Origin: a virus
Strand: one strand, 5' to 3'
DNA: 64,000 nucleotides
Virus record (IMG/VR): IMGVR_UViG_3300028844_003967
Location: 5,221-69,220 of that record
Shown: in pieces, positions 5,567 to 27,521 of the stretch
Numbering within the stretch: position 1 is the first letter of the stretch
How the letters are laid out: each line of letters begins with the position of its first letter
The notes under the pieces: model-generated
What the model saw: the letters and a program-made list of their open reading frames with translations, nothing else
Databases searched by the model: none
What the model was told of the DNA's origin: nothing
Program-made: the position numbers and the translations under genes

Positions 5567-5598
5567 AATTCATCGAGCACCGAAGCACCCGACAAATT
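5567..5598 (-). repeat. Intergenic hairpin element (cUUCGg family)
   Basis: TCGAGCAC-CGAA-GCACCCGA on +; mismatches in this core stem are A/C on +, i.e. G:U on the minus-strand RNA. Confidence 0.75.
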
Positions 5599-7046: not shown

Positions 7047-7057
7047 AAATTATAATT

Positions 7058-11793: not shown

Positions 11794-11794
11794 A

Positions 11795-13006: not shown

Positions 13007-13038
13007 AATTTGTCTATAATTTTTAGATTTTCATCCAT
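12847..13038 (-). CDS. Small ORF overlapping the 5' end of the F-like gene
   Basis: ATG 2 nt after the Ubl stop codon; 63 aa, predicted helical. Confidence 0.45.
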   Translation of the reverse strand: MDENLKIIDKLCKQELKHLKQNESLKSFHQYLGRIFSQEENWGVTLENQERQIMSSNQIDHIP

Positions 13039-13040
13039 TA

Positions 13041-13250
13041 TTATCCTTTTACGCCAACAGTTTTACCAAATTCAAACATTATTTCATCATTTTCAATAGA
13101 TGGGCCTTCAAGTGATGCATTAGTTAATTCGGGATATTGTCCTGAATAAAATTGCATTACATCTTTAGCTTCCATAATTGGGTCTGGATCTGATAATGTA
13201 AGTTTTCCGTATTTGAATACTCTTTTTAGTGTTTTAGCTTCAAGGCTCAT
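13041..13250 (-). CDS. PRTRC protein C (prokaryotic ubiquitin-like protein)
   Basis: LKRVFKY..L.LSDPDP.M....V..FYS..YPELTNA.LEGP...F...VGVKG; free C-terminal Gly. Confidence 0.9.
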   Translation of the reverse strand: MSLEAKTLKRVFKYGKLTLSDPDPIMEAKDVMQFYSGQYPELTNASLEGPSIENDEIMFEFGKTVGVKG

Positions 13251-13977
13251 AATTAAATTTATTTACTGATTCAACTTGGAATTGAGCTTTCGCGTCTAAT
13301 TCATCTTGTAATACTTCTATTTCTGCTTCACTCATTGGTGCAGAATGAACAATACGATTGTTTTCTATCTCTAATTGATTAGGAGATTCAGGTAATTCAT
13401 TTTTAATTTCTTTACCTAATTCATTAGCAATTACCGGAGCAGTTACAGCATCAGCTTTTTGAGCTTCAACAAATAAATCTACTTGGTTTTTAATTGGTTT
13501 AGCATCTTCTAAATCTTTAGATAATTTGTTTACATTAGCTGCACCAGGAGTTAATTTAATAGCTTTGTCTAATTCTTTTTCAGCATTCTTAAAATCTTTA
13601 GCTGTAATAAATTCATTAGCTTTAATAATAATCTTAGCTACTTTTTCTTTATTCTTTTTAGCTTGAGCTTTTAATTCAGCTTGGTGTTTATTTTCTTCTG
13701 CTAATTTTTCAGCACCTTTCTCAAAATTGTCAATTTCAATAACGATACCTGTAACTTTAGTCATTGGTTCTTTAATAGCATTAAAAAACTCTTCGTCAAG
13801 TTCTTCAATAGTACCTCTAATAACCATTGGCTGTACACTATCTTTAGCATTGTCTTTAATTCTTGGTTGTGGTAATAGCGATACTACAACAGTATCTCCG
13901 GAACCTTTAGCAACCGTTAATGTTAAATTCATAGAGCCAAGAAATGGCGCTATAGTAGCGAAAAAATTTGTTTTCAT
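13240..13977 (-). CDS. PRTRC protein E
   Basis: NFFATIAP..L.LTV......VVSLLP...PMVIRGTIEELDEEFF.AI..P N-terminal domain, TPR-like helix pair, low-complexity tail. Confidence 0.85.
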   Translation of the reverse strand: MKTNFFATIAPFLGSMNLTLTVAKGSGDTVVVSLLPQPRIKDNAKDSVQPMVIRGTIEELDEEFFNAIKEPMTKVTGIVIEIDNFEKGAEKLAEENKHQAELKAQAKKNKEKVAKIIIKANEFITAKDFKNAEKELDKAIKLTPGAANVNKLSKDLEDAKPIKNQVDLFVEAQKADAVTAPVIANELGKEIKNELPESPNQLEIENNRIVHSAPMSEAEIEVLQDELDAKAQFQVESVNKFNYEP

Positions 13978-14023
13978 ACATTTTGGATTTAATTAATAAC
14001 TTTCATTGTAAATATAAATAAAA

Positions 14024-14051
14024 TTCAGTTAGCACCGAAGTACTAACTGAA
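14024..14051 (-). repeat. Intergenic hairpin element upstream of the PRTRC cassette
   Basis: TTCAGTTAGCAC-CGAA-GTACTAACTGAA; further hairpins at 14055-14076 and ~14102-14141. Confidence 0.8.
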
Positions 14052-14148
14052 GTATTACAGCTTTCGCAAGCTGTAACCATTTGTATGAACAACAAAAACC
14101 AAAGAGCAGAGAAGAACGGAAACCATTCTTCAATACTCTTTTAAATTT

Positions 14149-14541
14149 TCACACTATTGTTAGTGTATTTTGCTCTACATATTCTAACAATATTTCAGAC
14201 AGAATAGTTTTACATTGTTCTATTTGTTCTGTTTGAGTAGGAGTAACATCTCCATTTTCTAATTTGTTTAACCTACTTATATCTTCAAATAAATATTCAA
14301 ATGATTCTTTTACTTGTTCATTTATTATTTCTTTAGCTGTCATTGGAATTGTAACTAAATTACAATGAAAAGCTAATTGGTCTAAAGGTATTCTTCCATG
14401 ATTAGATGAATAATATCCTTGAGCTTTGTATCTCTCTACAAAATTGTCTAAAGCTTCTCCAGCTTCTTCTACAGTTTCGTAAGTTTTCATTCTATTGATA
14501 GATATACCATCAGGTGACATTACATCATAATATTTTATCAT
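14149..14541 (-). CDS. Hypothetical phage protein
   Basis: 130-aa ORF with ATGA overlap to the upstream gene. Confidence 0.6.
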   Translation of the reverse strand: MIKYYDVMSPDGISINRMKTYETVEEAGEALDNFVERYKAQGYYSSNHGRIPLDQLAFHCNLVTIPMTAKEIINEQVKESFEYLFEDISRLNKLENGDVTPTQTEQIEQCKTILSEILLEYVEQNTLTIV

Positions 14542-14954
14542 ATGTATAATTTTGTGTTTTTAGTGTAGATGTATGAAATTTCTCCAAAAACCTCTACTGG
14601 CTCTTGAAATGGATAATATGCTATCCAATTAATAGCTTTCTTAGGATTAAACTCTAACTGTGTTGGCATATCATCAGCTATCTCAACATCTTCTACATTG
14701 TCTTTTACGTAGCTACCAGCACATATCCATGCACATGGTTGTTTATTTGCTCCTTCTAAAATCTTTTTGGCTGTATTTGGCCTGTTATAAAGAAAGCAGT
14801 TTCTAAAAATAATAGTAAACTTAGTTGGATCTACGTATTCAACGATAGCTCCTTGTTTACTATTAGTTATATATTCTCTTATTTGCCACCATCCGTAGTG
14901 CTTACCTTTTCCAAGGTGCCTACGAATAGTGTACATATAATTGGTATTAAACAT
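14538..14954 (-). CDS. Hypothetical phage protein
   Basis: 138-aa ORF coupled to both neighbours. Confidence 0.6.
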   Translation of the reverse strand: MFNTNYMYTIRRHLGKGKHYGWWQIREYITNSKQGAIVEYVDPTKFTIIFRNCFLYNRPNTAKKILEGANKQPCAWICAGSYVKDNVEDVEIADDMPTQLEFNPKKAINWIAYYPFQEPVEVFGEISYIYTKNTKLYI

Positions 14955-15142
14955 TAATTTAAATGTTTACGAGCAAAAGCAGAATGAGCAGCTTGCTCTT
15001 CATCTGATTCTTCATCCTCAAAATTATATCCTCTTGGATTATTAATTTCATCTTCTCCACAATTCCCACAATAAGCTGGATTGGAGTTTTCTTTATCTTT
15101 CCCTAAATTGTCGTAACAATTAGGACATCTTAAATCTGCCAT
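14954..15142 (-). CDS. Small zinc-ribbon protein
   Basis: CPNC...CGNC and an acidic tail. Confidence 0.6.
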   Translation of the reverse strand: MADLRCPNCYDNLGKDKENSNPAYCGNCGEDEINNPRGYNFEDEESDEEQAAHSAFARKHLN

Positions 15143-15144
15143 AG

Positions 15145-15315
15145 TTATTCTTTTTCTAATTCTACCATACCTGTACCGTCACAGGTTTCGCATTTCTTCA
15201 TATAGCCACATCCTCCACAACAATCTCCGATAGGATATACACTACATTGGTAACTTGTATCTTCAAAATATTCTCCATCTTCGCAGTCTGGACATTCTAT
15301 TTGTTCATCAGGCAT
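15145..15315 (-). CDS. Small Cys-rich zinc-finger protein (56 aa); absent from the ORF track
   Basis: Hand translation: MPDEQIECPDCEDGEYFEDTSYQCSVYPIGDCCGGCGYMKKCETCDGTGMVELEKE; fills the gap with 2-nt spacing on both sides; DnaJ-type CxxCxGxG. Confidence 0.7.
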   Translation of the reverse strand: MPDEQIECPDCEDGEYFEDTSYQCSVYPIGDCCGGCGYMKKCETCDGTGMVELEKE

Positions 15316-15317
15316 AA

Positions 15318-15719
15318 TTATATCATTCTTAATGTATTGTTATTAAAGAATTTAATAGTAACATCAGTTCCTATTACTTTCTCAACAATAGCTTGAACAT
15401 ATCTAATGTAGCAATCTCTATCTTGTTTTTTCATTTTCTTAAAATAGTAATTATCTACAGTGTTTCCACTCCACATACTTACTTCTTGGTCATGATGTGT
15501 TAAAAAGCCTGGTATATTCCAATTAGCTTTATAACTAAATCCAGTTATATATAAGCTTGTTGATATTCTTGTTTTTGTATGGTTTCTTGCCACTACACAA
15601 ACATACCCTTTCTTTTTTACCTCATCAATAAAGTCTTTCTGACTTGCTAAAGGTCTAAATTCCATTACCATAGGTGTCGGAATAAATTCAATTTTGTTAG
15701 TTTCAAATAATGCTTCCAT
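15318..15719 (-). CDS. Hypothetical protein
   Basis: Track ORF; likely start MEALFETN at 15719. Confidence 0.55.
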   Translation of the reverse strand: MEALFETNKIEFIPTPMVMEFRPLASQKDFIDEVKKKGYVCVVARNHTKTRISTSLYITGFSYKANWNIPGFLTHHDQEVSMWSGNTVDNYYFKKMKKQDRDCYIRYVQAIVEKVIGTDVTIKFFNNNTLRMI

Positions 15720-15721
15720 AA

Positions 15722-15931
15722 TTATTTTTTTAATGCATGTTTTACTTCTCTTACCCATTCTTCATATCCAACTTGAAAAGCTATTGGGTCATACTTTCTT
15801 ATGGAAGTTCCCCATTTGTTCTGCCACATATGTGCCATACGAATAGTTCCTCCAATTATCCAACGCTCATCTCCTTGTTCTGGAGATAAGTCGTTTAGAT
15901 ATTCTTCATACTCTTTTTTTGTCAGCTTCAT
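15722..15931 (-). CDS. Hypothetical phage protein (..DPIAF.VG..EW motif)
   Basis: Track ORF; likely start MKLTKKEY at 15931. Confidence 0.6.
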   Translation of the reverse strand: MKLTKKEYEEYLNDLSPEQGDERWIIGGTIRMAHMWQNKWGTSIRKYDPIAFQVGYEEWVREVKHALKK

Positions 15932-16145
15932 GTATTTTGGTATTATCTTCAATTTTCTTAATTAGCTGATTCATTTCTTGTCTAACAAATTCTACAGTAA
16001 ACAATGCTCTTTTGCCATCTTTTTCTATATCTTCTAATATTTTAATTGAAGCATCTCGTTCAGCACGTAATGCTTCAATTATTATATAAGCTTCTCTTCC
16101 ATTAAACAATTTAATTTCTTTTAAACGATAGTCTGATGTTGCCAT
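15906..16145 (-). CDS. Hypothetical protein
   Basis: Likely start MATSDYRL at 16145, directly downstream of a hairpin element and AT-rich leader. Confidence 0.6.
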   Translation of the reverse strand: MATSDYRLKEIKLFNGREAYIIIEALRAERDASIKILEDIEKDGKRALFTVEFVRQEMNQLIKKIEDNTKIHEADKKRV

Positions 16146-16160
16146 AATTATATATATTTT

Positions 16161-16196
16161 AAAATTCAATCAGCACCGAAGCACTGATTGAGTTTT
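16161..16196 (-). repeat. Intergenic hairpin element
   Basis: AAAATTCAATCAGCAC-CGAA-GCACTGATTGAGTTTT; two A/C mismatches equal G:U on the minus strand. Confidence 0.85.
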
Positions 16197-16754
16197 TTAC
16201 TTTTCTAAACATTTTAATTGATTACTTATTACATTAGGTTTATCACAATCGTAACTCTCATAACCTTTGCTCCAGTAAATCCTAACCTTTTCTATGTCCG
16301 ATGATTTAAGAGAGCTTATGTCTGACTCTTCTAAAACACAATAGCTTGAGTAAGTTGTTGTTCCCCTATCGTAATCGGAGTCTCCAAAATCTGACTTGCC
16401 AATTATAAGTTCAATCATTGATCCATCTACTAATTTCATAATAATTTTACTACCTTTAGACACTACTCCATAATATTCATAGGCTTTTTTAGTTTGAAAT
16501 TTAGCATTAAAATATAATGCATAAGTTTCATTTAGCTTGGCTGTGTAAACTCCAATTTCCAGATACTGCTCTTTCTTGCGTTTGTAGTATTTTAATAGTG
16601 CAGAATCTGTGTGAGAAATAAATGGTTCGGTTTCCATTATTATTCTTGTGTCTCCTGTAAATTCATCTACTTCATTCTTGTAGTAATTACATTCTTGTGC
16701 GTTACATATTAATACTCCCATTAATAAGGTTATTGTTAAAATTGTTCTTTTCAT
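16197..16754 (-). CDS. Secreted/periplasmic protein with Sec signal peptide
   Basis: MKRTILTITLLMGVLICNA-Q Bacteroidota-type signal peptide (Gln at +1); NEVDEFTG motif. Confidence 0.65.
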   Translation of the reverse strand: MKRTILTITLLMGVLICNAQECNYYKNEVDEFTGDTRIIMETEPFISHTDSALLKYYKRKKEQYLEIGVYTAKLNETYALYFNAKFQTKKAYEYYGVVSKGSKIIMKLVDGSMIELIIGKSDFGDSDYDRGTTTYSSYCVLEESDISSLKSSDIEKVRIYWSKGYESYDCDKPNVISNQLKCLEK

Positions 16755-16768
16755 TATTTTTATTTTTA

Positions 16769-17185
16769 TTAAATTTTTTTCACTAAGTGATAAATTTTTC
16801 TTAACTCAACTTTTTCTGCTTCAGTTAAATTTTTTCCAAGTCTTTCTATTAGAGATAAAACTTCATTTATTTTTGTTTTCTTACTTTTAGTTTTATTTTT
16901 CTTTAACTTAAATGGTAGGTTATCTGTTAAATCCCATTCTATCACATTTCTATTGGTTACAGTACATTTACGTACTCTCACTTCATAAATGACTCCTAAA
17001 TCACGTAATTCGGTAAACCTTGAAGAAACTCCAAAGACTCCAAATTTTGCTCCTGATTTTGTTATTGCTTCTGATGAAGTACAAGGAGCTGATTTTAATA
17101 ATGTTTCTAAAACTTCTAATCTTCTTTTAGATAATAACCCTTCTGCTTTTATTTGTTTATAACATTCTATACTTGTTTGTCTCAT
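16769..17185 (-). CDS. Winged-helix DNA-binding protein
   Basis: PCTSSEA...VSSRFTELRDLGVI.EV..RKC.VT.R.V..W pattern. Confidence 0.6.
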   Translation of the reverse strand: MRQTSIECYKQIKAEGLLSKRRLEVLETLLKSAPCTSSEAITKSGAKFGVFGVSSRFTELRDLGVIYEVRVRKCTVTNRNVIEWDLTDNLPFKLKKNKTKSKKTKINEVLSLIERLGKNLTEAEKVELRKIYHLVKKI

Positions 17186-17197
17186 AATTATTATGTA

Positions 17198-17644
17198 TTA
17201 AATTAATCCTTCATCAGCAAAGCTATAAAAGCTTTCTTCTGTTATTATTAAATGATCAAGTACTGTAATATCAAGTAACTTTCCGCAATCTACCATTTTA
17301 TTAGTAAGATTGATATCGGCTTGACTTGGTTTTAAATTACCTGATGGATGATTGTGTACAAGTATTACGCTTCTTGCATTACACAATAAACCATGCTGAA
17401 ATACAGTTTTAGGGTCTGCAATAGTTCCTGTTAGACCTCCTAATCCAACTATTGTAAAACCAATAGTATTGTTAGCTGTATTTAGATATACACACATAAA
17501 AGCTTCTCTATAGTCAATTTGTACCGGAAATACTTTCCTTACAAATTCACTTAAAGCTTGAGAAGAATTTATTTTCATCCTATGTACATCATCTTTCTTA
17601 GTATATACTGCTTCCAGTTCTTTAGCAAATGATTTAAGATTCAT
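17198..17644 (-). CDS. radC: RadC-like JAB/MPN domain protein
   Basis: REAF..YLN.AN, HNHPSGNLKPSQAD and LDHLII...YSFADEG motifs; JAB domain only. Confidence 0.9.
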   Translation of the reverse strand: MNLKSFAKELEAVYTKKDDVHRMKINSSQALSEFVRKVFPVQIDYREAFMCVYLNTANNTIGFTIVGLGGLTGTIADPKTVFQHGLLCNARSVILVHNHPSGNLKPSQADINLTNKMVDCGKLLDITVLDHLIITEESFYSFADEGLI

Positions 17645-17658
17645 AATTATATATTTTA

Positions 17659-17693
17659 AAATTCAATGAGTACCGAAGCACTCATTAAAATTT
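17659..17693 (-). repeat. Intergenic hairpin element
   Basis: AATGAGTAC-CGAA-GCACTCATT; downstream leader almost identical to that at 16143-16170. Confidence 0.85.
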
Positions 17694-17694
17694 A

Positions 17695-17955
17695 TTAATA
17701 CCCTACAAAATAATTCATCCATTCATCTTCATCTGCGTTATCTTGCATGTCATTAAACTCTTTAGCCATATCTCCATTAAGAACTACCTCTTGTGGTTTA
17801 TTCTCTTCCGAGTATTTCTCATACGCATACAATAATGATTCTAATATCTTATGAGGCCCATTGTTCCTCATAAGCATTAAAACTGTATTTTCAGCGTGAG
17901 ATGAGGTCATATCTTTAACCTCAATCTCTTTACCTTCTCTTGTTTTCCATTTCAT
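17695..17955 (-). CDS. Hypothetical phage protein (W.T..G..I...DM...H..N motif)
   Basis: 86-aa ORF coupled to the upstream gene. Confidence 0.6.
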   Translation of the reverse strand: MKWKTREGKEIEVKDMTSSHAENTVLMLMRNNGPHKILESLLYAYEKYSEENKPQEVVLNGDMAKEFNDMQDNADEDEWMNYFVGY

Positions 17956-18347
17956 TAGTCCTGGTATCTGTTAATGCTTTCTCCAAAGACAGTTGCTCCG
18001 TCAATGTACATGCCTTTCCAAAAGAATACTATTCTGTTTTTTTGTATAATTGGTTTAACCCACAAAGCAGGACTATCAAACAAAACACCATTCTCTATCA
18101 AAGAAACAGAAGGTATTCTAATCTTTGAAATTTTAGTCTTGCTTATAACTTTAGTCTTGCCAAAATTATTCTTAACAGTCTTTTTAATAGTCTTGTTTTC
18201 AATTATACAGCCTTTTTTAGTGGCTTTTATAATTAAATTGTCAAATAGTACTTTAGCAATCTCCCAATCGCTTAAATCACATTCTTTTCTAAGTCTTTCT
18301 GAGCTTTTAAACCCTTTTTCTTCTAATAATTGTCCTAATCGTGCCAT
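17955..18347 (-). CDS. Hypothetical basic protein
   Basis: 130-aa ORF in the block orientation, TAATG coupling to the next gene. Confidence 0.55.
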   Translation of the reverse strand: MARLGQLLEEKGFKSSERLRKECDLSDWEIAKVLFDNLIIKATKKGCIIENKTIKKTVKNNFGKTKVISKTKISKIRIPSVSLIENGVLFDSPALWVKPIIQKNRIVFFWKGMYIDGATVFGESINRYQD

Positions 18348-18417
18348 AATCTTCTGTGTTTTATTAGTTGTTTGTATATATATTAATTTGCAGAATATCT
18401 ATATAATATCTACTGCA

Positions 18418-18444
18418 TAAAAAAAGAGGCTATTAAACCTCTTT
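18418..18444 (-). terminator. Intrinsic terminator
   Basis: AAAAAAAGAGG-CTATTAAA-CCTCTTT; T run follows the stem on the minus strand. Confidence 0.6.
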
Positions 18445-18597
18445 ATTATTGTTGTCTTTTACAAGCTCATTCATCCATCTTACTAACAGGACATCTTGTA
18501 AATGTTTATCGTTAAAGTTTCTCCAAAAACTTAACATATCTTCTTTAGTTATTTTTGGAGTCTTTCTAACAGATTTACTCTTTCCAGCATTATCCAT
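18433..18597 (-). CDS. Small hypothetical protein (54 aa); absent from the ORF track
   Basis: Hand translation MDNAGKSKSVRKTPKITKEDMLSFWRNFNDKHLQDVLLVRWMNELVKDNNNKEV; overlaps the upstream stop. Confidence 0.5.
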   Translation of the reverse strand: MDNAGKSKSVRKTPKITKEDMLSFWRNFNDKHLQDVLLVRWMNELVKDNNNKEV

Positions 18598-18919
18598 GCT
18601 TTTTAGATTTTTTCCAATGTTGATTTACATTAAACAAAGTGAATTTATCAAAGATAAGATCAGATTCTTTCCAATTTTTAAAAACATATATCCCTATCTC
18701 ATCCGGATATAGATACATCTTTTCTAAATATTCAGTTTGATGTTTATAGTTTTCTGATTTTTTCTTATTATCTAAATGGACAGTATAGTGATAAAGCTTT
18801 CTGTTCCACTCTCTGCATAAAGTAGATATATATAGATATTTTATACCAAACATAATAACATACGTTAGAGGTATAACAATAGATAATATACATAGTAAGT
18901 GAATAGTTTCTTCGTTCAT
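18590..18919 (-). CDS. Membrane-anchored hypothetical protein
   Basis: N-terminal TM segment (LLCILSIVIPLTYVIMFGI). Confidence 0.55.
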   Translation of the reverse strand: MNEETIHLLCILSIVIPLTYVIMFGIKYLYISTLCREWNRKLYHYTVHLDNKKKSENYKHQTEYLEKMYLYPDEIGIYVFKNWKESDLIFDKFTLFNVNQHWKKSKKHG

Positions 18920-19055
18920 AGTTTTTGTTTTAACAGGTTAAAATTTATTTCGAGTCTTTCTAAGACAAAAACATTACCGCTGGACATACATTAGTCTGTC
19001 GGTAATTAAGTATTGTTCGTATTTAATTGGGTAATTATTGCATCTGTTTAGTAAA

Positions 19056-19086
19056 AAAAAAGAGTACACGTTAGTGTACTCTTTTT
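19056..19086. terminator. Hairpin/terminator, variant of the GTAC element
   Basis: AAAAAGAGTACAC-GTTA-GTGTACTCTTTTT. Confidence 0.7.
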
Positions 19087-19093
19087 GTATTTA

Positions 19094-19729
19094 CTAAAGG
19101 TTTGCTTTAGTTATGTTACTGATTTGGTCAAAGTTTCTATCTCCCGAAGTAATTTTCAATCGGTAAGTAGTATCTTTCAACTCGTTGATAATTTTGCATA
19201 ATGCTTCACAATATGCTTTAGGCTCATTTACTCGAACTGCGTAGCATTTGTTATTATCATTACTATTATCAAAGATAAACTCTAATTCATCTCCATGCAT
19301 TTCTCTTAAAGCAGGTAATTCTTTTGCAAGGTCTGTGATTTCGATAGGTTGAGTTACCTTGATTACAGATTCTTGGTCTGTACCCTCGTTTTGTACAACA
19401 TCTACCTCTTGAGTATATGCTACAAATGGATTAGGTAAAGAACTAAGCAAATCTGTTTTATCAGCATGAATAAACAAATATCTGTATTTGTTGATAGCTT
19501 TTGCTAATTCATTTGCTCGAGAAGTTCTGATAAAATCGTTTATACCGTCATCTCCTTTAGCTAATGCTCCAAAGTTTACTTTAACTGAATAAGTTTCTAC
19601 TCCGTCTTTAGTTTTGGTATGAACGCTTGCATCTTCAAGTTTAGCAAATCCTGATTTCATTGTTCTTAATGCCGAGCTTTTTGCATTAGTTGATAATTGA
19701 GCTCCTCCGAATTGTTCTAAAAAATTCAT
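19094..19729 (-). CDS. Hypothetical protein (211 aa)
   Basis: Likely start MNFLEQFGG at 19729; the track's longer TTG start runs into a hairpin. Confidence 0.65.
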   Translation of the reverse strand: MNFLEQFGGAQLSTNAKSSALRTMKSGFAKLEDASVHTKTKDGVETYSVKVNFGALAKGDDGINDFIRTSRANELAKAINKYRYLFIHADKTDLLSSLPNPFVAYTQEVDVVQNEGTDQESVIKVTQPIEITDLAKELPALREMHGDELEFIFDNSNDNNKCYAVRVNEPKAYCEALCKIINELKDTTYRLKITSGDRNFDQISNITKANL

Positions 19730-19822
19730 ATTAATGTTAGTGGTAAGCCACGACCTTTTAGTTAATAAATAATCAAGCAACAAAGAAGAACAAAAACTCT
19801 TTGCTACTTGAAAAGTGTAGGT

Positions 19823-19987
19823 TTACGATACTCTCAATACTTTGAGAGAACGTGCTATTCTGTTAGGATTGTAGCTAACAAGAACAGATGTCATGATTTT
19901 AGCATCTTTTCTTGTAGATGCTAATAGTTTAGAACTTTTTAACCTTGGTCTTTTAGTTCGTGTCGGTGATAGTGTATCTCTTTGCAT
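19823..19987 (-). CDS. Small basic protein (54 aa); absent from the ORF track
   Basis: MQRDTLSPTRTKRPRLKSSKLLASTRKDAKIMTSVLVSYNPNRIARSLKVLRVS, lying between two hairpins. Confidence 0.5.
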   Translation of the reverse strand: MQRDTLSPTRTKRPRLKSSKLLASTRKDAKIMTSVLVSYNPNRIARSLKVLRVS

Positions 19988-20059
19988 ATTATTTGGTGAT
20001 GTTTATAGTAAAACATCAACCAACAAAGAAGTACTTTGTTGATTGTTATGTTTAAGTTT

Positions 20060-20317
20060 TTATTTCATCTTTCCGTATCTGTTTTCAATAATTAATTCAA
20101 GAAGTATATTTTGTAGTTCTTCAGATAAATGCTGAAACAAATCAGGATTGTACTTAAACGAACAAAATTGATGTAATTGCCAAGCGTCAAGTGTACGCAT
20201 AGTACTACTACTTACTTTACAGTTTCCGGATTTGTAGCACCACAATTCTATTGTTCTTTCTTTTGAGGTTTTTACCTCAAATGTGTAGCCTAATAAGGTT
20301 ATTTCTAATTCTAACAT
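20060..20317 (-). CDS. Hypothetical early protein
   Basis: 85-aa ORF between two hairpin elements. Confidence 0.6.
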   Translation of the reverse strand: MLELEITLLGYTFEVKTSKERTIELWCYKSGNCKVSSSTMRTLDAWQLHQFCSFKYNPDLFQHLSEELQNILLELIIENRYGKMK

Positions 20318-20376
20318 AGTTCAAGTTGTTACTCATAGTAGAATAACAAAGAATACCGAAGTACTCTTTGTTATTT

Positions 20377-20685
20377 TTAAAGGTTTTTAAATCCTCCTGC
20401 AAGACATTTGAAGTTGTTCCAAGTAGTTCTATACTTTTGATGTTTAGTCTGAAGTATAATAAACTGTGATGTTACATTAACTACACGATATATTCCATTA
20501 CGGGAATTAACGTGTATTTTATCTCCAATGTAACAAGGTTTAATAGCTTTTACGAGCTTAAATCTTCTTCTCTTAGGGTTAGCATCATAAACCTCAAGTT
20601 CGTAATACCATTTACTTGGTACGTCTAACACAACATCAGAAGGAAGAAACGGAGACCAACCATAGTCATCAATTTTATTTTTCAT
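20377..20685 (-). CDS. Hypothetical early protein (possible SH3/KOW-like C-terminus)
   Basis: Likely start MKNKIDD at 20685; IGDKIHV....GIYRVVNV. Confidence 0.55.
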   Translation of the reverse strand: MKNKIDDYGWSPFLPSDVVLDVPSKWYYELEVYDANPKRRRFKLVKAIKPCYIGDKIHVNSRNGIYRVVNVTSQFIILQTKHQKYRTTWNNFKCLAGGFKNL

Positions 20686-20739
20686 ATTGCTAAGTTTTAA
20701 AATTACAAAGAACAAGGAAGTACCTTGTTCTTTGGTTAA

Positions 20740-21021
20740 TTACATTTGACTTGTATTATAAGGCTTGTCAATCATGTAGTAATCTGTACATAAATCTTCT
20801 AAAGATTCGTAATGACCATTTAAAGCTATCGCAAGTATATCACTTTTGGTAGTGTAATAGTCAATCCATGGAGAATAGAAGTACTTTATGTTGTATAAGT
20901 AGTTTTCGTATTTCTCGTATGTTTGTGATTCCATTTCATTATAACTCCATAATGAGTTTAATTTTTTCTGATACCAATTATAAGCATCAGAAATTTTTTT
21001 GTAATTAATAGGTGTGTTCAT
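20740..21021 (-). CDS. Tyr-rich hypothetical early protein
   Basis: 93-aa ORF between two hairpin elements. Confidence 0.6.
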   Translation of the reverse strand: MNTPINYKKISDAYNWYQKKLNSLWSYNEMESQTYEKYENYLYNIKYFYSPWIDYYTTKSDILAIALNGHYESLEDLCTDYYMIDKPYNTSQM

Positions 21022-21073
21022 AGCTTATAGTTTTAGTTAAACATTCAATGAGTACAGAAGTACTCATTGAATG

Positions 21074-21199
21074 TTATCCCCAATTAAATTTAACAAATGG
21101 TTTGTTGGGTTTAATTGGTTTCCAACATACTCTTAGTTTATACACGTCTAACGTGTATTTCCAAGTGTTTCCGTCTTTATGTAATCTAAATATTTTCAT
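21074..21199 (-). CDS. Small protein (41 aa); absent from the ORF track
   Basis: MKIFRLHKDGNTWKYTLDVYKLRVCWKPIKPNKPFVKFNWG; stop codon forms the base of the next hairpin. Confidence 0.55.
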   Translation of the reverse strand: MKIFRLHKDGNTWKYTLDVYKLRVCWKPIKPNKPFVKFNWG

Positions 21200-21252
21200 A
21201 TGATTTAGTTTTAGTGAATAATACAAAGAGTACGGAAGTACTCTATGTATTA

Positions 21253-21438
21253 TTAATGATTGTGAGAATGAAACATTAATAGTTTTATTCTCATCTCAAG
21301 CATATCAGCTTTTTTCTTTGCACCAGCATAAGGTATAGATTCAGGTTTAAGCTCGTTTAATCTTGCTTTGTAACCATTATACTTACGCACAAGATTTCCT
21401 ATGCGTGAATGCAGTTTATTCATCTTTTCAGTAGTCAT
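21253..21438 (-). CDS. Small helical protein (61 aa)
   Basis: Likely start MTTEKMNK at 21438; the track's extension crosses a hairpin element. Confidence 0.6.
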   Translation of the reverse strand: MTTEKMNKLHSRIGNLVRKYNGYKARLNELKPESIPYAGAKKKADMLEMRIKLLMFHSHNH

Positions 21439-21497
21439 ATCTAAGTTGGTTATAATTGTGAATAACCAACAAGCACCGAAGTACTTGTTGATTATTT

Positions 21498-21638
21498 TTA
21501 GAAAGGACATACAGCTGTGCATGGTGCTGACTTAGAATAAGATTTACTTGTTGAGCATGATGACATGACTATACATACAAGTAATAAATAAGCTATTACT
21601 GTGAAGTAACAAGCATTCATAAGTTTTTCTCTTTTCAT
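21498..21638 (-). CDS. Very small putative lipoprotein (46 aa); absent from the ORF track
   Basis: MKREKLMNACYFTVIAYLLLVCIVMSS-CSTSKSYSKSAPCTAVCPF; basic N-terminus, hydrophobic core, lipobox MSSC. Confidence 0.6.
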   Translation of the reverse strand: MKREKLMNACYFTVIAYLLLVCIVMSSCSTSKSYSKSAPCTAVCPF

Positions 21639-21673
21639 AACTATAGTTTTAAAAATTCAATAAGCAATGAAGC

Positions 21674-21805
21674 TTATTGAATAGGGTAACCTGCGTCATA
21701 CAGGTATTGTTCTGTTCGCACATCAGCTTGGTGTACTTTGTAAAGAACAATTAGAATTAGCATTAATGTGATAGATAACACGATAATTTTTAGTTTTTTT
21801 TTCAT
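21674..21805 (-). CDS. Small membrane protein (43 aa); absent from the ORF track
   Basis: MKKKLKIIVLSITLMLILIVLYKVHQADVRTEQYLYDAGYPIQ. Confidence 0.55.
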   Translation of the reverse strand: MKKKLKIIVLSITLMLILIVLYKVHQADVRTEQYLYDAGYPIQ

Positions 21806-21921
21806 ATCAGTTTAATTAATTCACGATTAACAGCGTCTGAAATTTTTTGTTTAGAGCTGTAGTTTTCATTGATTTCTGCATTAATTAATATGCGAGAAAC
21901 GATTTGTTTAAATTTTTTCAT
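21802..21921 (-). CDS. Small protein (39 aa); absent from the ORF track
   Basis: MKKFKQIVSRILINAEINENYSSKQKISDAVNRELIKLI; ATGA overlap with the next ORF. Confidence 0.55.
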   Translation of the reverse strand: MKKFKQIVSRILINAEINENYSSKQKISDAVNRELIKLI

Positions 21922-22732
21922 AATGATTTTAATATTAGTTTAAATAACAAAGAAGTACTACGAAGCATACTTAAAAAAAATTCAATCAGTACGTGAGTAC
22001 TGATTGAATAGTTGACTTGCTAAGTCTAAGTTTGGGAATTACACTCCAAAGCAATAAGGAGACACCACAACGGTTGGTATCATAAGTGAACAACTGTTCA
22101 CGCAAGCTTATTAAGATTATTACTGAATTGTAATAATCAATCAATACCGAAGTATTGATTGATGTTGCTTATTTACTTGATGTAGTAGGTTACAAGCGTG
22201 TACCTAATTATTATAAACCAATCATAGTGGAATTAGAATAATAATCAAAGAATAAAGAAGTACAATACAAAGAATACGTCACATTGTCATTGACAAATCG
22301 TCATGCTCTAACCATTGCTATTGTCATTTATTTCTTATAACTTCGTACACTCATATGTATCACGTATGAACAACAACATAACCAAACAGTTTCTAATCGT
22401 AGTAGAAATGTAGAGGATTGACACTCTCCACTCGCTTGGCTCTCACTACAGTATAACTACGCAGTAGGTAGTAAACTCAATCAAAATGCAATGAAGAACT
22501 TGTGATGAATTGTATTTGGATTTGGTTTTCAAATCGTTTTCGATTTGGTACCCCGTATGTTTCCATTTTGCTTTCAGAAGTTGCTAACTTTAAGATAGTC
22601 TTCTCACCCTTGGCATCCACTACTACTTTACGACCAGTATGTGTTTGGGATCAGGGCCGGGGGTTGTTTTAGGAATTGATGTATTCAGTTAATTCAATAG
22701 GGGTATGTTATATAATGATAAAAAAATATTAG

Positions 22733-22740
22733 TATATTTG
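22733..22740 (+). promoter_or_regulatory. Bacteroidota sigma70-type -7 element (TAnnTTTG)
   Basis: TATATTTG about 30 nt upstream of ORF 22770. Confidence 0.5.
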
Positions 22741-22769
22741 GGTATTGTTAATCATTAAAGATATGTGTT

Positions 22770-22898
22770 ATGCCAAAAGGTAAAAGGAAATTAAAGAAAC
22801 GTATAACTGCTGCTAAGATGGGAGCTGGTGCTACTAAGAAGGTAGCGAAGAAAGCTGCTAAGAAGATTGTTAAGAAGCGTAGGAGTAGTGGGTATTAA
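22770..22898 (+). CDS. Histone H1-like Lys/Ala-rich basic peptide (42 aa); absent from the ORF track
   Basis: MPKGKRKLKKRITAAKMGAGATKKVAKKAAKKIVKKRRSSGY; has its own promoter element and terminator. Confidence 0.65.
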   Translation: MPKGKRKLKKRITAAKMGAGATKKVAKKAAKKIVKKRRSSGY

Positions 22899-22904
22899 AA
22901 AATT

Positions 22905-22932
22905 AAGGGAGTGGTTAGCTCCCTTCTTTCTT
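22905..22932 (+). terminator. Intrinsic terminator
   Basis: AAGGGAG-TGGTTAG-CTCCCTT followed by CTTTCTT. Confidence 0.6.
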
Positions 22933-23152
22933 ACATGTTGTTGCCTTGGTGTAGTGTTTTAATTACAAGCCAAGCTAATAACATTATTGATATTGGTAGT
23001 GTTAGAAACGTAATAACCCATATTGGATTATTCTCTCCTGAATGTTTAACGAACCAAGATATGGATGCTAATCCACACATCCAGACTACTAATAATACGA
23101 CCAATAGCATTGGTCTTTCCCATAGGTATTTCCAAATTGTTTTATTACTCAT
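22931..23152 (-). CDS. Two-TM membrane protein
   Basis: Two hydrophobic helices in 73 aa. Confidence 0.55.
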   Translation of the reverse strand: MSNKTIWKYLWERPMLLVVLLVVWMCGLASISWFVKHSGENNPIWVITFLTLPISIMLLAWLVIKTLHQGNNM

Positions 23153-23172
23153 GTTCTTTGTTTTAGTTTAAT

Positions 23173-23547
23173 TTATTCTTCTTCCATTTTAGATGTGAAC
23201 CTATTTGGGTCCAATCTTTCTTTTTCTGTTTGTTCCTGGTCTATATCTAACTTGAATACTAAATCACCATTCATGTATGTTGCTTTGGGATCTATCTTGC
23301 CAAACATTTGACATAAATATATATCTCTTGTAAATCCACTAAGTGCAGCTGTGTAATCTGTTTTACCTTCCGGCACATATGCTTTACGATAGAAATGCCA
23401 TAGATACCATTTCTTACGATGCTTCTTTCTTAGGTTAGTTTCTAACACTAACGTATTCTGTTCTCTTGTAGATACAATGTGAGGATAGATAGGTACTAAT
23501 ACTTCTTCCTGTTCTTTTTCTTTACTTTCTTCTTTGGTACTTTCCAT
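23173..23547 (-). CDS. Hypothetical protein
   Basis: 124-aa ORF in a short minus-strand operon. Confidence 0.55.
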   Translation of the reverse strand: MESTKEESKEKEQEEVLVPIYPHIVSTREQNTLVLETNLRKKHRKKWYLWHFYRKAYVPEGKTDYTAALSGFTRDIYLCQMFGKIDPKATYMNGDLVFKLDIDQEQTEKERLDPNRFTSKMEEE

Positions 23548-23705
23548 GTTGGAGGATTATTAGAGACCTTTACTAAACCATTTAGTGATGGTGATTCAAT
23601 GCCTCTTGATTTTAAAATTCTTCTTGTCTTTTCTCCTTGCGAGAGAATATTGTGTGAAATACTATTAATCGAATCTATATATTTCTTTTCTTCTTCCTTG
23701 TTCAT
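23496..23705 (-). CDS. Hypothetical basic protein
   Basis: 69-aa ORF with TAATG coupling. Confidence 0.5.
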   Translation of the reverse strand: MNKEEEKKYIDSINSISHNILSQGEKTRRILKSRGIESPSLNGLVKVSNNPPTWKVPKKKVKKKNRKKY

Positions 23706-24055
23706 TAGTGTTTAAATTCATCGAACTCATAACAAACCCTACCTTCAGATACAATGTCAATTTCTCTGACTACAGCATAATGCTTATCTAAGTCATCTCT
23801 AATATCTTTTTCTCTCCAAATAAATTTAATCAAGTTCGATCTTAAATTCTTGGTAGGTGATTGATTCTGTTCATCCAGAACAATCGGGTACAATCTACAA
23901 ATAATAGTCTTAACATCTTTCATTCCTTTAGCTACTTTTCTTTGATTTTTAGAAGTAAGTAGTTTGTGTACAGAATGAGGATAATAATATATATTAAAAT
24001 TTGCTATACAAGTTCTTGGCTTATAGCCTATTGGGTACTTTCTTTTTTCGTTCAC
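23705..24055 (-). CDS. Hypothetical protein
   Basis: 116-aa ORF, GTG start, divergent from the packaging operon. Confidence 0.55.
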   Translation of the reverse strand: MNEKRKYPIGYKPRTCIANFNIYYYPHSVHKLLTSKNQRKVAKGMKDVKTIICRLYPIVLDEQNQSPTKNLRSNLIKFIWREKDIRDDLDKHYAVVREIDIVSEGRVCYEFDEFKH

Positions 24056-24124
24056 ATTGCTAATTTATAAATATTTATTAAATCTAATGTACTTTTATTA
24101 CATTAATTTATTATCATTGTACTA

Positions 24125-24484
24125 ATGAAAGCGAAACATACAAGATGTGACTTTACTGTTCCTTTGTACGATGTGTCTGTATATGTTTACATATCAAATG
24201 ATATGTCTAATAATGTATCTGCAATTAATAATGATTTTGGATTAAACTCCACTAACGTTAATTCTCAGGGCAAGTCTATACAGTTTAGTAACAATAAAGA
24301 AACTAAGTTTGCTATGCTTTTTAAAGATGATGATAATTTAGATAAGGTAATAACTCATGAATCATTGCATATTTCTTGGTATATTTGTGAATACGTTGGT
24401 ATTGGGTTAACTCCAAATAACCATGAAGCACAAGCTTATATTCTTGAATACATAGTAGATAAAGTAAAGAGTTTTTTGTTTTGA
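24125..24484 (+). CDS. Zincin-like metallopeptidase-motif protein
   Basis: ITHESLH (HExxH) plus downstream HEAQAY. Confidence 0.65.
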   Translation: MKAKHTRCDFTVPLYDVSVYVYISNDMSNNVSAINNDFGLNSTNVNSQGKSIQFSNNKETKFAMLFKDDDNLDKVITHESLHISWYICEYVGIGLTPNNHEAQAYILEYIVDKVKSFLF

Positions 24485-24804
24485 GTAGAGTTAAGCTAAA
24501 TAAGAATGGCAATCCTTTTGAGGAATGTGATAGAGAGATTACGGTTGAAGTAATGAATACTATTTCTGGTTTAAGTAAAACTGGAATAAAAATGTTAGAA
24601 TATATGATGTCCTATTCTCCAAAGGATGCTAATAAGATTTATATTGAAAAGAAAGCATTTATGTTTGATTGTGATATGAAGGAGAAGTCATTCTTTAATG
24701 GTATTAAAGATTTAGTAAATAATAATATTATTGCTACATCAGATATATCGTTTGAGTATTATTTTAACCATGCCTATTTTGGCAAAAAAGAAAAAACAAA
24801 ATGA
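24481..24804 (+). CDS. RepL-like winged-helix protein
   Basis: LSKTGIKML...SFFNGIKDLV..NII......YYFN pattern; located upstream of terminase as in crAss-like phages. Confidence 0.55.
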   Translation: MSRVKLNKNGNPFEECDREITVEVMNTISGLSKTGIKMLEYMMSYSPKDANKIYIEKKAFMFDCDMKEKSFFNGIKDLVNNNIIATSDISFEYYFNHAYFGKKEKTK

Positions 24805-25022
24805 TTGTAGAAAGAATATCAGAAACAATGTTTACTATTGACGGAGAATTGGCTGAGCTGTATGAAGGGAGATTAGAATTTTCCAATGGTCAAGAAATAA
24901 CTTACTATCAGTTTAGAGCTGTTCAAGAGTTTTTAGATATAGAAGAAAATGATCTTCGTAACTTAGCGCATAGAAAAGTAGTAAGACTACTTGCTGAGTT
25001 AGGTATTAAAAGAGAAAAGTAA
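24801..25022 (+). CDS. Hypothetical protein
   Basis: 73-aa ORF with ATGA overlap. Confidence 0.55.
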   Translation: MIVERISETMFTIDGELAELYEGRLEFSNGQEITYYQFRAVQEFLDIEENDLRNLAHRKVVRLLAELGIKREK

Positions 25023-25026
25023 AGTA

Positions 25027-25569
25027 ATGTTTAACGAGCTTATTGAAATAGATAAAGAAGGTAATGTATTTATTCAAGATGATTCTATTGCCTTAATGCC
25101 AAAACTATGGGCTGTCTATAAAGACAAGTATGGTGGAAGTAAAATGGTAAGATGGATTGTGTCAATGGATGATTACAAGTCTCCATTTCGTAGATTACCT
25201 GAAGAAGAACGTTCTGAAAGATTGACAATGAATATATTTGGAAAGAGAACATTAAGAAGAACTACTGAAAAACTTGTTACAGAAGCAAGGCACGAATATA
25301 AAATGTTACAGTTTGACCCTATGGTTGATCAGTACAATGCAATGAGTGAGCAAATGTTTCTTATGACTCAAGTATTTAAGTCTATGAAACCTTCTAAAGA
25401 TAATTTAGCTGATTTAAATGATATGCAAGTAAAAATGCAAAAAGCAGCAGAAGCACGAGAGAAGCTTAAAACAATGATTATTAAAGACCAAGATTCTGAT
25501 TCTAAAATTAAAGGTACAGGTTCAGATGATTTCTCAATATTTGAAAACGAACAAAGATTAGAAGATTGA
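25027..25569 (+). CDS. Conserved protein upstream of terminase (possible small terminase subunit)
   Basis: Helical 180-aa ORF overlapping the terL start; function inferred from synteny only. Confidence 0.5.
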   Translation: MFNELIEIDKEGNVFIQDDSIALMPKLWAVYKDKYGGSKMVRWIVSMDDYKSPFRRLPEEERSERLTMNIFGKRTLRRTTEKLVTEARHEYKMLQFDPMVDQYNAMSEQMFLMTQVFKSMKPSKDNLADLNDMQVKMQKAAEAREKLKTMIIKDQDSDSKIKGTGSDDFSIFENEQRLED

Positions 25570-27521
25570 TATCAGCACAAAAATATTCGCCAGTACTATT
25601 TGATAAAAGTATTAATAAGTTTGAAAGCTTTAGAACAGATAGTATAGAGTATTCACAATTTTGGAGAACTCAAAAGGATAGAATATTAAATGGCTACAAA
25701 CCCAATGGAGGTGTTTGGATTCCGGGTAATTATTATTTCTATTTAAACTTTTCTAAAATACATGGATTAAACCCAGGTGCAAAACGTAAAAGCATGATAT
25801 CTCCATTGTATCGTGACCAAGACCACGAGTACTATCAGGAAGTTCATGAAGCTAAAGAAAACGGTAGAGGAATTATTGTTTTAAAAGCAAGGCGTAAGGG
25901 GTTTTCTTTCATGAATGCCAATATACTTCTGCATGAATGGACTTGCTTTCCTCATTCTGAAAATGGATTAGGAGCGCAGAAAGAAGATTACGTACAAGAT
26001 TTTAGAAAAAAGATGTTACTATCGTATAACGAGCTACCACCTCAGTTTAGAAATAAGATACTTCACAACAATGAGGAAATCTTTATGTCTGGATATAAAG
26101 AAAAGGAGAATGGTATATGGATGGAGAGAGGAACTAAGTCTATGATTCACTTTAGGGTAATGGAAAAGCCAAATGCTTTTAGGGGTACTTCACTTAACTT
26201 TATGGTATTTGAAGAAGCTGGTGAGTTTTTAAAGCTTAAACGTTCTTTTGAATCTTCTGAAGATTGTTTTAAAGAAGGTGATGTATTTTTTGGTACACCT
26301 ATTATTGGTGGAACTTCTAACAACATGGAGATTGAGAGTGATGATTATATGGAAATGTTTTATAATGCTGAACGATATAATCTAAAACCTGTATTTATTA
26401 AAGCTTCTAAAGTCTTTGGTAGTTTCTTTGATATGAGTACCGGCAAGTCTGATGTTAAAGGTGCTGAAGAATATGTAATGGCTGAAGCTCAGCGTAGGAA
26501 AGAATCAGGTGATTTACAAACTTACTATTCTTACTTACAAGAAAATCCTTTAGAAGTAGAACATGCTTTCTTTAAGTCTGGTGCTACTCCATTTGATTTA
26601 AATAAAATCAATACTCAGATAGGCAATATCATGACTAATAAGAATTTTGATATTGTTAAAAAGGGAAGATTAGATTGGCCGAAAAATAAGGATGGTAAAA
26701 CTGTATTTGGAGGAAAGCCAATATGGGTAGATGATGATGGTAGCTTAGATGCTAATGACATAAATAAAGAAATGTTTCCGTTTGAGATGATTGAAAGACC
26801 ATTAGATGGAATTAAAAATGCTCATGTTGCTGCAGTCGATCCTTATCATATTGATGATGAGTTAGAAGAAATGAAGAAAGGTGGTAAGGTAGATAATAAG
26901 TCTAAAGGTTCAATGTGTGTATATAGAAGGTTTGTCGATACTAATACTGTATGTGAACTACCAGTTGCATTTTATACAGACAGACCTTATTCAAAAGAAG
27001 CTTTTTATGAGAACTGTTTAAAGATGTGTATTTATTATGATTCAAGAATATTAGTTGAATACAATGATGATGGTTTTTTAAAGTACTTTATTAAGAATAA
27101 AATGCAGAGATATCTAAAAGAACGACCACGTTCTGCTGATTCTCCAAATAGTAAAGCTACTAACAAGTATGGGGTACATATGAAATCATTTCAAAAGAAA
27201 CTACTTACAGAGCTTGTAGATGAATATGTTAAAAAACATCATGAAGATATTTACTTCTTGAAACTTTTAAATGAACTTGCAGTATATGGTAAACAAAACA
27301 CAGATAGGGTAATGTCTTTTGGTATGGCTCTTATTCATTCTATGGATGCTGAAAGAAAGGTTTACGATGAAAAAGAAGATGAAGAAGCAGAAAAAATGTT
27401 TATTCCTCATTTTGGTAGAAAAAACGATGGCACTATAGTGTCTATTCATAGAGATACGGACGGTAACTTGCAGAAGTCAAGAAGAAGTCCTAATTTTGAT
27501 TACGATTTTAGTGATGATTAA
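25566..27521 (+). CDS. terL: Terminase large subunit
   Basis: Walker A VLKARRKGFS, Walker B MVFEEAG, nuclease motifs AAVDPY and DRVMSFG. Confidence 0.93.
   Translation: MISAQKYSPVLFDKSINKFESFRTDSIEYSQFWRTQKDRILNGYKPNGGVWIPGNYYFYLNFSKIHGLNPGAKRKSMISPLYRDQDHEYYQEVHEAKENGRGIIVLKARRKGFSFMNANILLHEWTCFPHSENGLGAQKEDYVQDFRKKMLLSYNELPPQFRNKILHNNEEIFMSGYKEKENGIWMERGTKSMIHFRVMEKPNAFRGTSLNFMVFEEAGEFLKLKRSFESSEDCFKEGDVFFGTPIIGGTSNNMEIESDDYMEMFYNAERYNLKPVFIKASKVFGSFFDMSTGKSDVKGAEEYVMAEAQRRKESGDLQTYYSYLQENPLEVEHAFFKSGATPFDLNKINTQIGNIMTNKNFDIVKKGRLDWPKNKDGKTVFGGKPIWVDDDGSLDANDINKEMFPFEMIERPLDGIKNAHVAAVDPYHIDDELEEMKKGGKVDNKSKGSMCVYRRFVDTNTVCELPVAFYTDRPYSKEAFYENCLKMCIYYDSRILVEYNDDGFLKYFIKNKMQRYLKERPRSADSPNSKATNKYGVHMKSFQKKLLTELVDEYVKKHHEDIYFLKLLNELAVYGKQNTDRVMSFGMALIHSMDAERKVYDEKEDEEAEKMFIPHFGRKNDGTIVSIHRDTDGNLQKSRRSPNFDYDFSDD

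Follow-up and report, generated by a model that had tools for sequence, protein, structure and literature searches.

Hairpin-bounded small genes form a variable array in the replication module of a marine crAss-like phage

Why should a phage genome carry a row of very small genes with a stem-loop between nearly every one of them and the next? This question is raised by a stretch of 64,000 nucleotides (nt), bases 5221-69220 of the virus record IMGVR_UViG_3300028844_003967 (69,220 base pairs (bp), rated complete), which we call the window and in whose coordinates all positions are given unless another contig is named. At 19.8-22.0 kb the window holds an array of nine minus-strand open reading frames (ORFs) of 39-102 amino acids (aa), named a1 to a9 here, and all nine frames of the initial annotation were recovered with the same boundaries. 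The reading that we favor, with a probability of roughly 0.6, is that the array is a hyperplastic accessory-gene stretch of the replication, presumably early, minus-strand module, in which the hairpins serve both as punctuation of the mRNA and as joints for recombination.

Read in the coding sense, the junctions of the array follow one order: a TAA stop, a stem-loop of 11-16 bp, an A-rich leader of 17-38 nt, which often contains TAAAAC, and then the next ATG. The proposal of one hairpin per interval was borne out, as a stem-loop is found at 8/8 non-overlapping junctions; the only junction without an intervening stem-loop is that between a9 and a8, the last two ORFs by position, which overlap by 4 nt. 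The stem-loop starts at the stop codon or overlaps it, and for a3, a5, a6 and a8 the stop lies in or against the hairpin base, just as had been described. The common apex is GTACTTC, which in the mRNA sense often gives a C(UUCG)G tetraloop. The hairpins of the array and of its upstream flank are as follows (z, folding z score; L numbers denote related contigs introduced below, and X104 is an ORF of theirs).

19773..19811, minus strand: stem-loop between a1 and a 211-aa gene; 14-nt arms, 11-nt loop, no GTACTTC apex; z -3.4.
20013..20049, minus strand: hairpin after a2; apex TACTT; z -5.4.
20340..20377, minus strand: hairpin after a3; C(UUCG)G apex; z -5.1; its 3' half is present in the chimeric hairpin of L008.
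20706..20734, minus strand: hairpin after a4; apex TACTT and T-rich tail; z -5.4.
21040..21075, minus strand: hairpin after a5; perfect 16-bp stem, apex UUCU, overlaps the a5 stop; z -9.1.
21217..21254, minus strand: hairpin after a6; apex UUCC; z -7.3; its 5' half is in the chimeric hairpin of L008, and it is the shared boundary of the swap between a5+a4 and X104.
21461..21496, minus strand: hairpin after a7; C(UUCG)G apex, two U.G wobbles (mRNA sense); z -6.5; duplicated around an extra 78-aa ORF in L030.
21655..21682, minus strand: hairpin over the a8 stop; 11 bp, then a T-run; z -5.7; its 3' flank is joined to another hairpin in L007.
21980..22009, minus strand: hairpin upstream of the array; 13 bp, then a T-run of 8, terminator-like.
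22136..22163, minus strand: further C(UUCG)G hairpin; z -6.0; no ORF of at least 30 aa after it.

All ten intergenic stretches (10/10) fold with z scores between -3.4 and -9.1, and none of 200 shuffles was as good in any case. Hairpins of at least 12 bp reach 4.0 per kb in 19700-22200, compared with 0.93 elsewhere in the minus-strand module and 0.63 in the plus-strand module; in 100 shuffles of 19700-22200 the mean was 0.54 and the highest value 3, and two of the ten hairpins of this size there fall inside ORFs. The window has 19 copies of the apex motif, which reads GAAGTAC on the plus strand, where 5.8 +/- 2.2 would be expected; 9/19 lie in the 2.3 kb of 20028-22263. Terminator-like sites in 14000-26000 number 21 against an expected 3.6 +/- 2.0. 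The minus-strand module has 14 hairpins with this apex, all on its coding strand, and the 39.9-kb late module has 0; array-type hairpins are also present at 5567, 7053, 14022, 16161, 17657, 21980 and 22136, in each case within the minus-strand module and on its coding strand. The hairpins are thus specific to one strand and one module, and they keep a fixed register from stop to start. Within the family the apex GTACTTC is constant while the stems vary, and the register of the apex relative to the stem shifts.

Runs of 2-5 family hairpins, 50-150 nt apart and with no ORF of at least 30 aa between them, were also seen (L008 6195-6525; L009 574-1107; L030, segment positions 1156-1615; window 21980-22163), and these could be empty slots, or could hold tiny peptides or small RNAs. 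When viral contigs were scanned with a 14-nt apex pattern, at least 119 single matches came up, 87 of them with stems of only 5-6 bp, which is about chance level. In each of two low-G+C viral contigs (L071 and L110) three long hairpins with a C(UUCG)G cap stand within 3 kb of one another, and neither contig has a small-ORF array.

Whether the content of the array changes between close relatives was assessed in six related contigs, found with the terminase and a conserved 124-aa upstream protein as anchors; the 211-aa flank protein, used as an anchor in viral contigs, gave no match. The terminases of L007, L008 and L009 are 95-96% identical to that of the window, the 124-aa protein is 92% identical in L030 and 72% in L032, and L010 ends just short of the array. 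The small genes are distributed as follows.

Window: a9 a8 a7 a6 a5 a4 a3 a2 a1.
L008: (a7 remnant) a6 a1.
L007: a7 a6 X104 a3, then the contig end; X104 is a new 104-aa ORF.
L030: Y41 Z78 a6 X104, then the contig end; Y41 and Z78 are new ORFs.
L032: a6 a5 a3 X52 a1; X52 is a new 52-aa ORF.

The sets of small genes differ among the related contigs, with exchange points at hairpins, and in this respect the hypervariable content anticipated in the initial annotation stands. The same cannot be said of a variable order, as the genes that the contigs have in common follow one another in the same order throughout. At all four aligned junctions (4/4) the breakpoints are inside hairpins or within ~10 nt of them. 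L008 has a chimeric hairpin built of the 5' arm of the a6 hairpin and the loop and 3' arm of the a3 hairpin, and a5, a4 and a3 are gone. L007 has a 21980-type stem-loop joined directly to the 3' flank of the 21655 hairpin and the start of a7, and here a9 and a8 are gone. X104 stands in place of a5+a4 between the same two hairpins in both L007 and L030, the distal (after-a4) one still being able to pair in L007 with one double change and two wobbles. The extra 78-aa ORF of L030 is flanked by two copies of the after-a7 hairpin. By these alignments the hairpins are shown to be the exchange points of gene turnover, and whole-gene exchange at hairpins therefore leaves close relatives with different gene sets in the same order.

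Beyond the array, differences between the window and L008 (2216-3956) lie beside the hairpins at 16161-16196 and 17657-17694. In the comparison of window 16161-16754 and 17657-17955 with L008, the latter lacks a 185-aa ORF, and in place of an 86-aa ORF it has two, of 122 and 84 aa. In L009 (2279-2566, minus strand) and L028 (segment positions 377-664) the conserved 124-aa gene is directly followed by a 95-aa ORF with an HExxH motif; the window has no such ORF, and therefore the first gene block is variable too. More distant relatives, with terminases 71-77% identical, have sparser hairpins with other apices, and thus the dense array is specific to the subclade of the window.

If the array is to be regarded as a set of accessory genes, its ORFs need to be genes. 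They are listed here together with the gene that closes the array (Ka/Ks, ratio of nonsynonymous to synonymous substitution rates).

21802..21921, minus strand: a9, 39 aa; exact sequence on 4 contigs.
21674..21805, minus strand: a8, 43 aa; its start overlaps the a9 stop by 4 nt; found only as a singleton cluster.
21498..21638, minus strand: a7, 46 aa; 89% identical in L007; Ka/Ks 0.23.
21253..21438, minus strand: a6, 61 aa, helical-looking; Ka/Ks 0.30-0.54; 18-member cluster.
21074..21199, minus strand: a5, 41 aa; homologue in L032, 73% identical; Ka/Ks 0.10.
20740..21021, minus strand: a4, 93 aa, no known family; homologues 95, 88 and 75% identical, in-frame deletions of 9 and 14 aa.
20377..20685, minus strand: a3, 102 aa; predicted small beta-barrel.
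20060..20317, minus strand: a2, 85 aa, no known family; homologues 88, 80 and 77% identical, in-frame 1-aa indel.
19823..19987, minus strand: a1, 54-aa basic protein; homologues in L008 and L032, ~45-50% identical; 90% cluster of 5 members.
19094..19729, minus strand: 211-aa gene, which closes the variable stretch; 32-33% identical in L008 and L032; followed by a terminator-like hairpin at 19055-19088.

Among homologues of the array ORFs Ka/Ks is 0.10-0.56, being below 1 for a3, a5, a6 and a7, and for a1 the proportion of nonsynonymous differences (pN) is 0.41 against a synonymous one (pS) of 0.82. The homologues of a2 and a4, 75-95% identical, come from a large protein collection and differ by in-frame indels of 1, 9 and 14 aa; when a2 and a4 were aligned against the viral contigs, no locus was found. 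Clusters of array proteins at 90% identity have 2-23 members on several contigs. A TAAAA motif at -20..-3 precedes 5/9 array ORFs; among 43 large genes its share is 42%, and among 1033 internal ATGs it is 8%. This comparison was made within the genome, as nothing on a ribosome-binding motif TAAAA in Flavobacterium came up in a literature search. The ATG starts of a3 (20685), a5 (21199) and a6 (21438) sit within longer frames started by TTG or ATG, and that of a6 is backed by homologues which begin at the same methionine. Conserved homologues, Ka/Ks, in-frame indels or gene-like starts make at least seven of the ORFs look like real genes. The gene status of a8 and a9 would follow from their coupling, start context and exact copies. 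Taken as a set, the array genes are, by these comparative measures, real and under purifying selection.

The products are mutually unrelated (blastp, E 1e-4), in agreement with what had been supposed, and none of the nine matches any Pfam or PHROG family. The most widespread cassette is a6 (L007, L008, L009, L030 and L032). The model of a3 is a small beta-barrel with a predicted local distance difference test score (pLDDT) of 85, and its C-terminal domain of ~50 aa has 98 remote relatives, 18 of the 20 scanned having no Pfam family. The a3 profile found nothing below E 0.7 among sequences of the PDB, and in Foldseek no match reached E <= 0.001, the rows returned being weak ones to small beta-barrels (Tudor, KOW, Hfq-like); the ESM Atlas held no usable match for a4 or a2. 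Judged by eye, the N-terminus of a7, with a signal peptide and a cysteine, looks like that of a small lipoprotein, and a8 looks like a single-pass membrane protein.

The window, whose G+C content is ~30%, is by its gene content a marine crAss-like phage, with crAss-type capsid, muzzle, terminase and portal genes and two divergent modules. The minus-strand genes extend from ~24055 down to 1145, and those of the plus strand take up the sequence from 24125 to the end. The plus-strand (late) module encodes the terminase (1.5e-83) and portal (1.5e-81; both PHROG), the crAss-type major capsid protein (PF23898, 1.2e-49) and the crAss muzzle protein (PF25731, 7e-105). It also encodes a 2973-aa protein (46250-55171, plus strand), which is likely the virion RNA polymerase, judging by a DxDGD-like motif near residue 2234; this is a motif match only, and a Pfam search with the protein gave no match. 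In the minus-strand module there are genes for DnaB, AAA_24, a PD-(D/E)XK nuclease, ThiF-, E2- and PRTRC-E-like proteins, RadC and DnaJ; the ThiF-like, prokaryotic E2-like and PRTRC-system-E-like genes are adjacent (10340-13977, minus strand), and RadC is at 17198-17644. The terminase is less than 28% identical to that of any deposited phage, and the lineage is therefore a distant, uncultured crAss-like one. A DNA search of 18000-24000 against deposited phages gave no match, a tRNA scan found none, and Rfam over 18000-25000 at E up to 1 returned only sub-threshold rows at chance level (best E 0.07).

The array is located 2-4 kb into the minus-strand replication module; upstream of it are four conserved genes and a conserved non-coding stretch of ~0.9 kb. 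Between the first gene block and the array, ~550 nt (22230-22780, minus sense) have no conserved ORF and are kept in five relatives with a mean column identity of 77% and invariant blocks. RNAalifold predicts 90 pairs there, of which 7 show compensatory changes; among the predicted elements is a long stem, and its 3' arm has the GTACTTC motif around an insert of variable length. The stretch recalls the abundant early non-coding RNAs of phage phi14:2, reported near the start of its early module. On the opposite strand, a lysine-rich ORF of 42 aa (22770-22898, plus strand) is 82-94% identical in L007-L010 (the match in L007 covers 17 residues only). A TAnnTTTG motif lies at 22733 and a bidirectional terminator-like hairpin follows at 22905-22925; the ORF possibly encodes a small basic protein transcribed by the host polymerase.

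How could such an array be expressed and exchanged? Sigma-70-like matches were not enriched (61 against 66.0 +/- 7.3 expected), and between 19277 and 25107 the coding strand has no copy of the Bacteroidetes-type motif TAnnTTTG. As each gene has neither the space nor a motif for a host promoter of its own, the genes are probably read from a polycistronic early message. The module is presumably early by analogy with the crAss-like phage phi14:2, in which the replicative module, opposite in strand to the late genes, is expressed early and by the virion RNA polymerase (10.1101/2020.03.07.982082). In the transcript the hairpins would act as leaky terminators and/or as protectors of 3' ends, punctuating the message. 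A U-tract directly follows the stem at 21980-22009, 21655-21682, 20706-20734 and 19055-19088 and in the members at 7053, 14022, 16161 and 17657, while the hairpins after a2, a3, a5, a6 and a7 have tails without a T-run. That the hairpins act in mRNA we infer from the UUCG loop, an RNA-specific stabilizer first seen in T4 mRNA (PMC4371310), from the pairing that the after-a4 hairpin keeps in L007, and from an excess of wobbles: G.U pairs outnumber A.C pairs by 18 to 6 in 17 family hairpins, compared with 41 to 44 in other hairpins of the same module (strand-neutral count). Recombination or template switching between near-identical hairpins would delete, insert or replace whole genes, and the turnover would be clean because such hairpins stand at every gene boundary. 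The simplest account of the exchange is that the repeated units undergo homologous recombination or template switching, to which the AAA_24 protein and the PD-(D/E)XK nuclease of the phage could contribute.

A number of observations speak against this reading. The excess of G.U pairs is modest (p 0.02 in the window), and as a late-module control also leans to G.U (92 against 43 A.C), the wobbles are only modest evidence. Six hairpins in the array (after a2 to a7) have no clean U-tract, and UUCG proper occurs in only 10/38 hairpins of a first collection, which had been selected by apex. To our knowledge the UUCU, UUCC and UACUU apices are not unusually stable. The conserved GTACTTC may therefore be read by a protein. 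Codon-usage scores of the array ORFs, -0.09 to 0.29 bits per codon, are intermediate between those of real genes (0.66 +/- 0.20) and spurious ORFs (-0.54 +/- 0.48), and for a8 and a9 the related contigs examined yielded no homologue. All six contigs are metagenome assemblies and cover part of the array, only L008 and L032 spanning it. The common genes always stand in the same order, which leaves true shuffling or insertion from outside without apparent support, and deletions alone could explain much of the content pattern. Finally, it is for an uncultured phage that we infer the roles of terminator and stabilizer.

The signals might instead be addressed to the phage polymerase. In this case the hairpins would be promoters or terminators of a crAss-type virion RNA polymerase and each cassette would have its own start site. 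Stability alone is insufficient to explain an apex that is kept while stems vary and the register shifts; every hairpin ends 17-38 nt upstream of an ATG; the family is limited to the module whose transcription is, by analogy, assigned to the virion polymerase, and the 2973-aa virion-type protein has a DxDGD-like motif. The polymerase gp66 of phi14:2 transcribes denatured DNA, and neither an early promoter motif for it nor a motif common to the regions upstream of early transcripts was found (10.1101/2020.03.07.982082). The virion RNA polymerase of phage N4 uses DNA hairpins as promoters, three short hairpins on the template strand, and the likeness lies in a polymerase carried in the virion for early genes and in hairpins upstream of these genes. 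However, the hairpins here are many and long, with stems of 11-16 bp against 5-7 bp and 3-nt loops in N4. Their wobbles favor the coding strand and would be A.C mismatches on the template strand. T-runs of 4-8 follow several members, as in terminators, and L008, L009 and L030 have 4-5 hairpins in a row with no ORF of at least 30 aa. On balance we consider this explanation unlikely. We give just as little credit to a bolder form of it, in which the GTACTTC hairpins would be cis-signals of that polymerase or of a dedicated factor cutting RNA or DNA, and a hairpin with its gene would make a self-sufficient, exchangeable early unit. It is also doubtful, and to our mind a long shot, that the hairpins are selfish palindromic repeats, similar to repetitive extragenic palindromes (REP) or miniature inverted-repeat transposable elements (MITE), which settled in intergenic gaps, gene variability being unrelated or a by-product. 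Such repeats would fit the tandem ORF-less hairpins (in L008, L009, L030 and at window 21980-22163) and the few classes of stem sequence with copies at several places, e.g. the 17657-type, present three times in L008. They would hardly be expected to keep so strict a strand, module and stop-to-start register, nor should breakpoints of gene indels coincide with hairpins in 4/4 aligned junctions, and no transposase or HUH-type gene was seen among the ORFs of at least 100 aa that were scanned (27 and 23 proteins, a part of all ORFs).

An integron-like system, with attC-type hairpins and a site-specific integrase of the phage or host, had been suggested by the layout, and the likeness to cassettes of attC and IntI is real in that there is one promoter-less ORF per imperfect palindrome, all in one orientation, with variable content. 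Yet the lack of an integrase, remarked upon for the window, extends to the whole 69,220-bp record, which has no tyrosine or serine recombinase (0 matches to PF00589 and PF00239, with controls firing in 14/14 and 12/14 genomes). Core sites of the attC type (RYYYAAC / GTTRRRY) were present at 0/17 hairpins, the stems are near-perfect and have no extrahelical bases as attC has, and crossovers occur wherever the parental hairpins are identical, as in exchange driven by homology. Because there is no integrase in the record and there are no attC-like core sites, the array is not an integron, and we hold that explanation to be very improbable. A similarly slight chance is left for the ORFs being accidental frames in a structured non-coding leader of which only the hairpins function. 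Their intermediate codon scores, the lack of family matches and the missing homologues of a8 and a9 would be expected under it; the Ka/Ks values below 1 (a3, a5, a6, a7), pN below pS in a1, in-frame indels in a2 and a4, the confident fold of a3 with its 98 remote relatives and the gene-like start contexts would not.

We thus return to an array of exchangeable accessory genes with hairpins as punctuation and joints, for which the closest known system is that of the promoter-early stem-loop (PeSL) cassettes of T4-type phages. There, the ORFans of hyperplastic regions are flanked by repeated motifs of promoter and stem-loop, through which indels and swaps come about (Arbiol et al. 2010, PMC2839356; Comeau et al. 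2014, PMC4122927). A further trait of PeSL cassettes is excised mini-circles with one ORF and one chimeric motif. Both systems have repeated intergenic stem-loops flanking small genes of unassigned function in variable regions; indels or replacements between close relatives end in the motifs, here at 4/4 junctions and at two sites outside the array; and a few copies of the motif stand beside variable genes in conserved modules. On the other hand, PeSL holds a strong sigma-70-type early promoter, none being detectable here, and its stems are often polyG/polyC, in contrast to the AT-rich stems with a GTACTTC / C(UUCG)G apex described above. The host phylum, the phage order and the transcribing polymerase are not the same either. 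As the sigma-70 promoter is missing and the sequence, host and polymerase are different, we count the array as a PeSL-like variant and not as a member of PeSL.

Very stable stem-loops between the cistrons of early phage messages are a further point of likeness, to phages T4 and T7. An original report of 1988 reportedly dealt with C(UUCG)G hairpins in T4 mRNA, and the early genes of T7 have RNase III hairpins between them. The hairpins of the window differ from both in standing at every junction of the array, in having more than a tetraloop in common and in marking recombination breakpoints.

Neither a full-text literature search nor a Crassvirales review yielded a description of hairpin-bounded small-gene arrays in crAss-like phages. 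The family of GTACTTC-apex hairpins, being specific to a strand and a module, is a concrete candidate signal for early transcription in these phages. With the array, clean whole-gene turnover at repeated regulatory hairpins extends from T4-type phages to a very different, Bacteroidota-infecting phage order. The array marks the fast-evolving accessory genes of its lineage and is a natural place to seek functions in host interaction or counter-defence. If the hairpins were true signals of the polymerase, the array would be a phage-borne cassette system that works without an integrase, and it would show how early transcription in crAss-like phages is punctuated.

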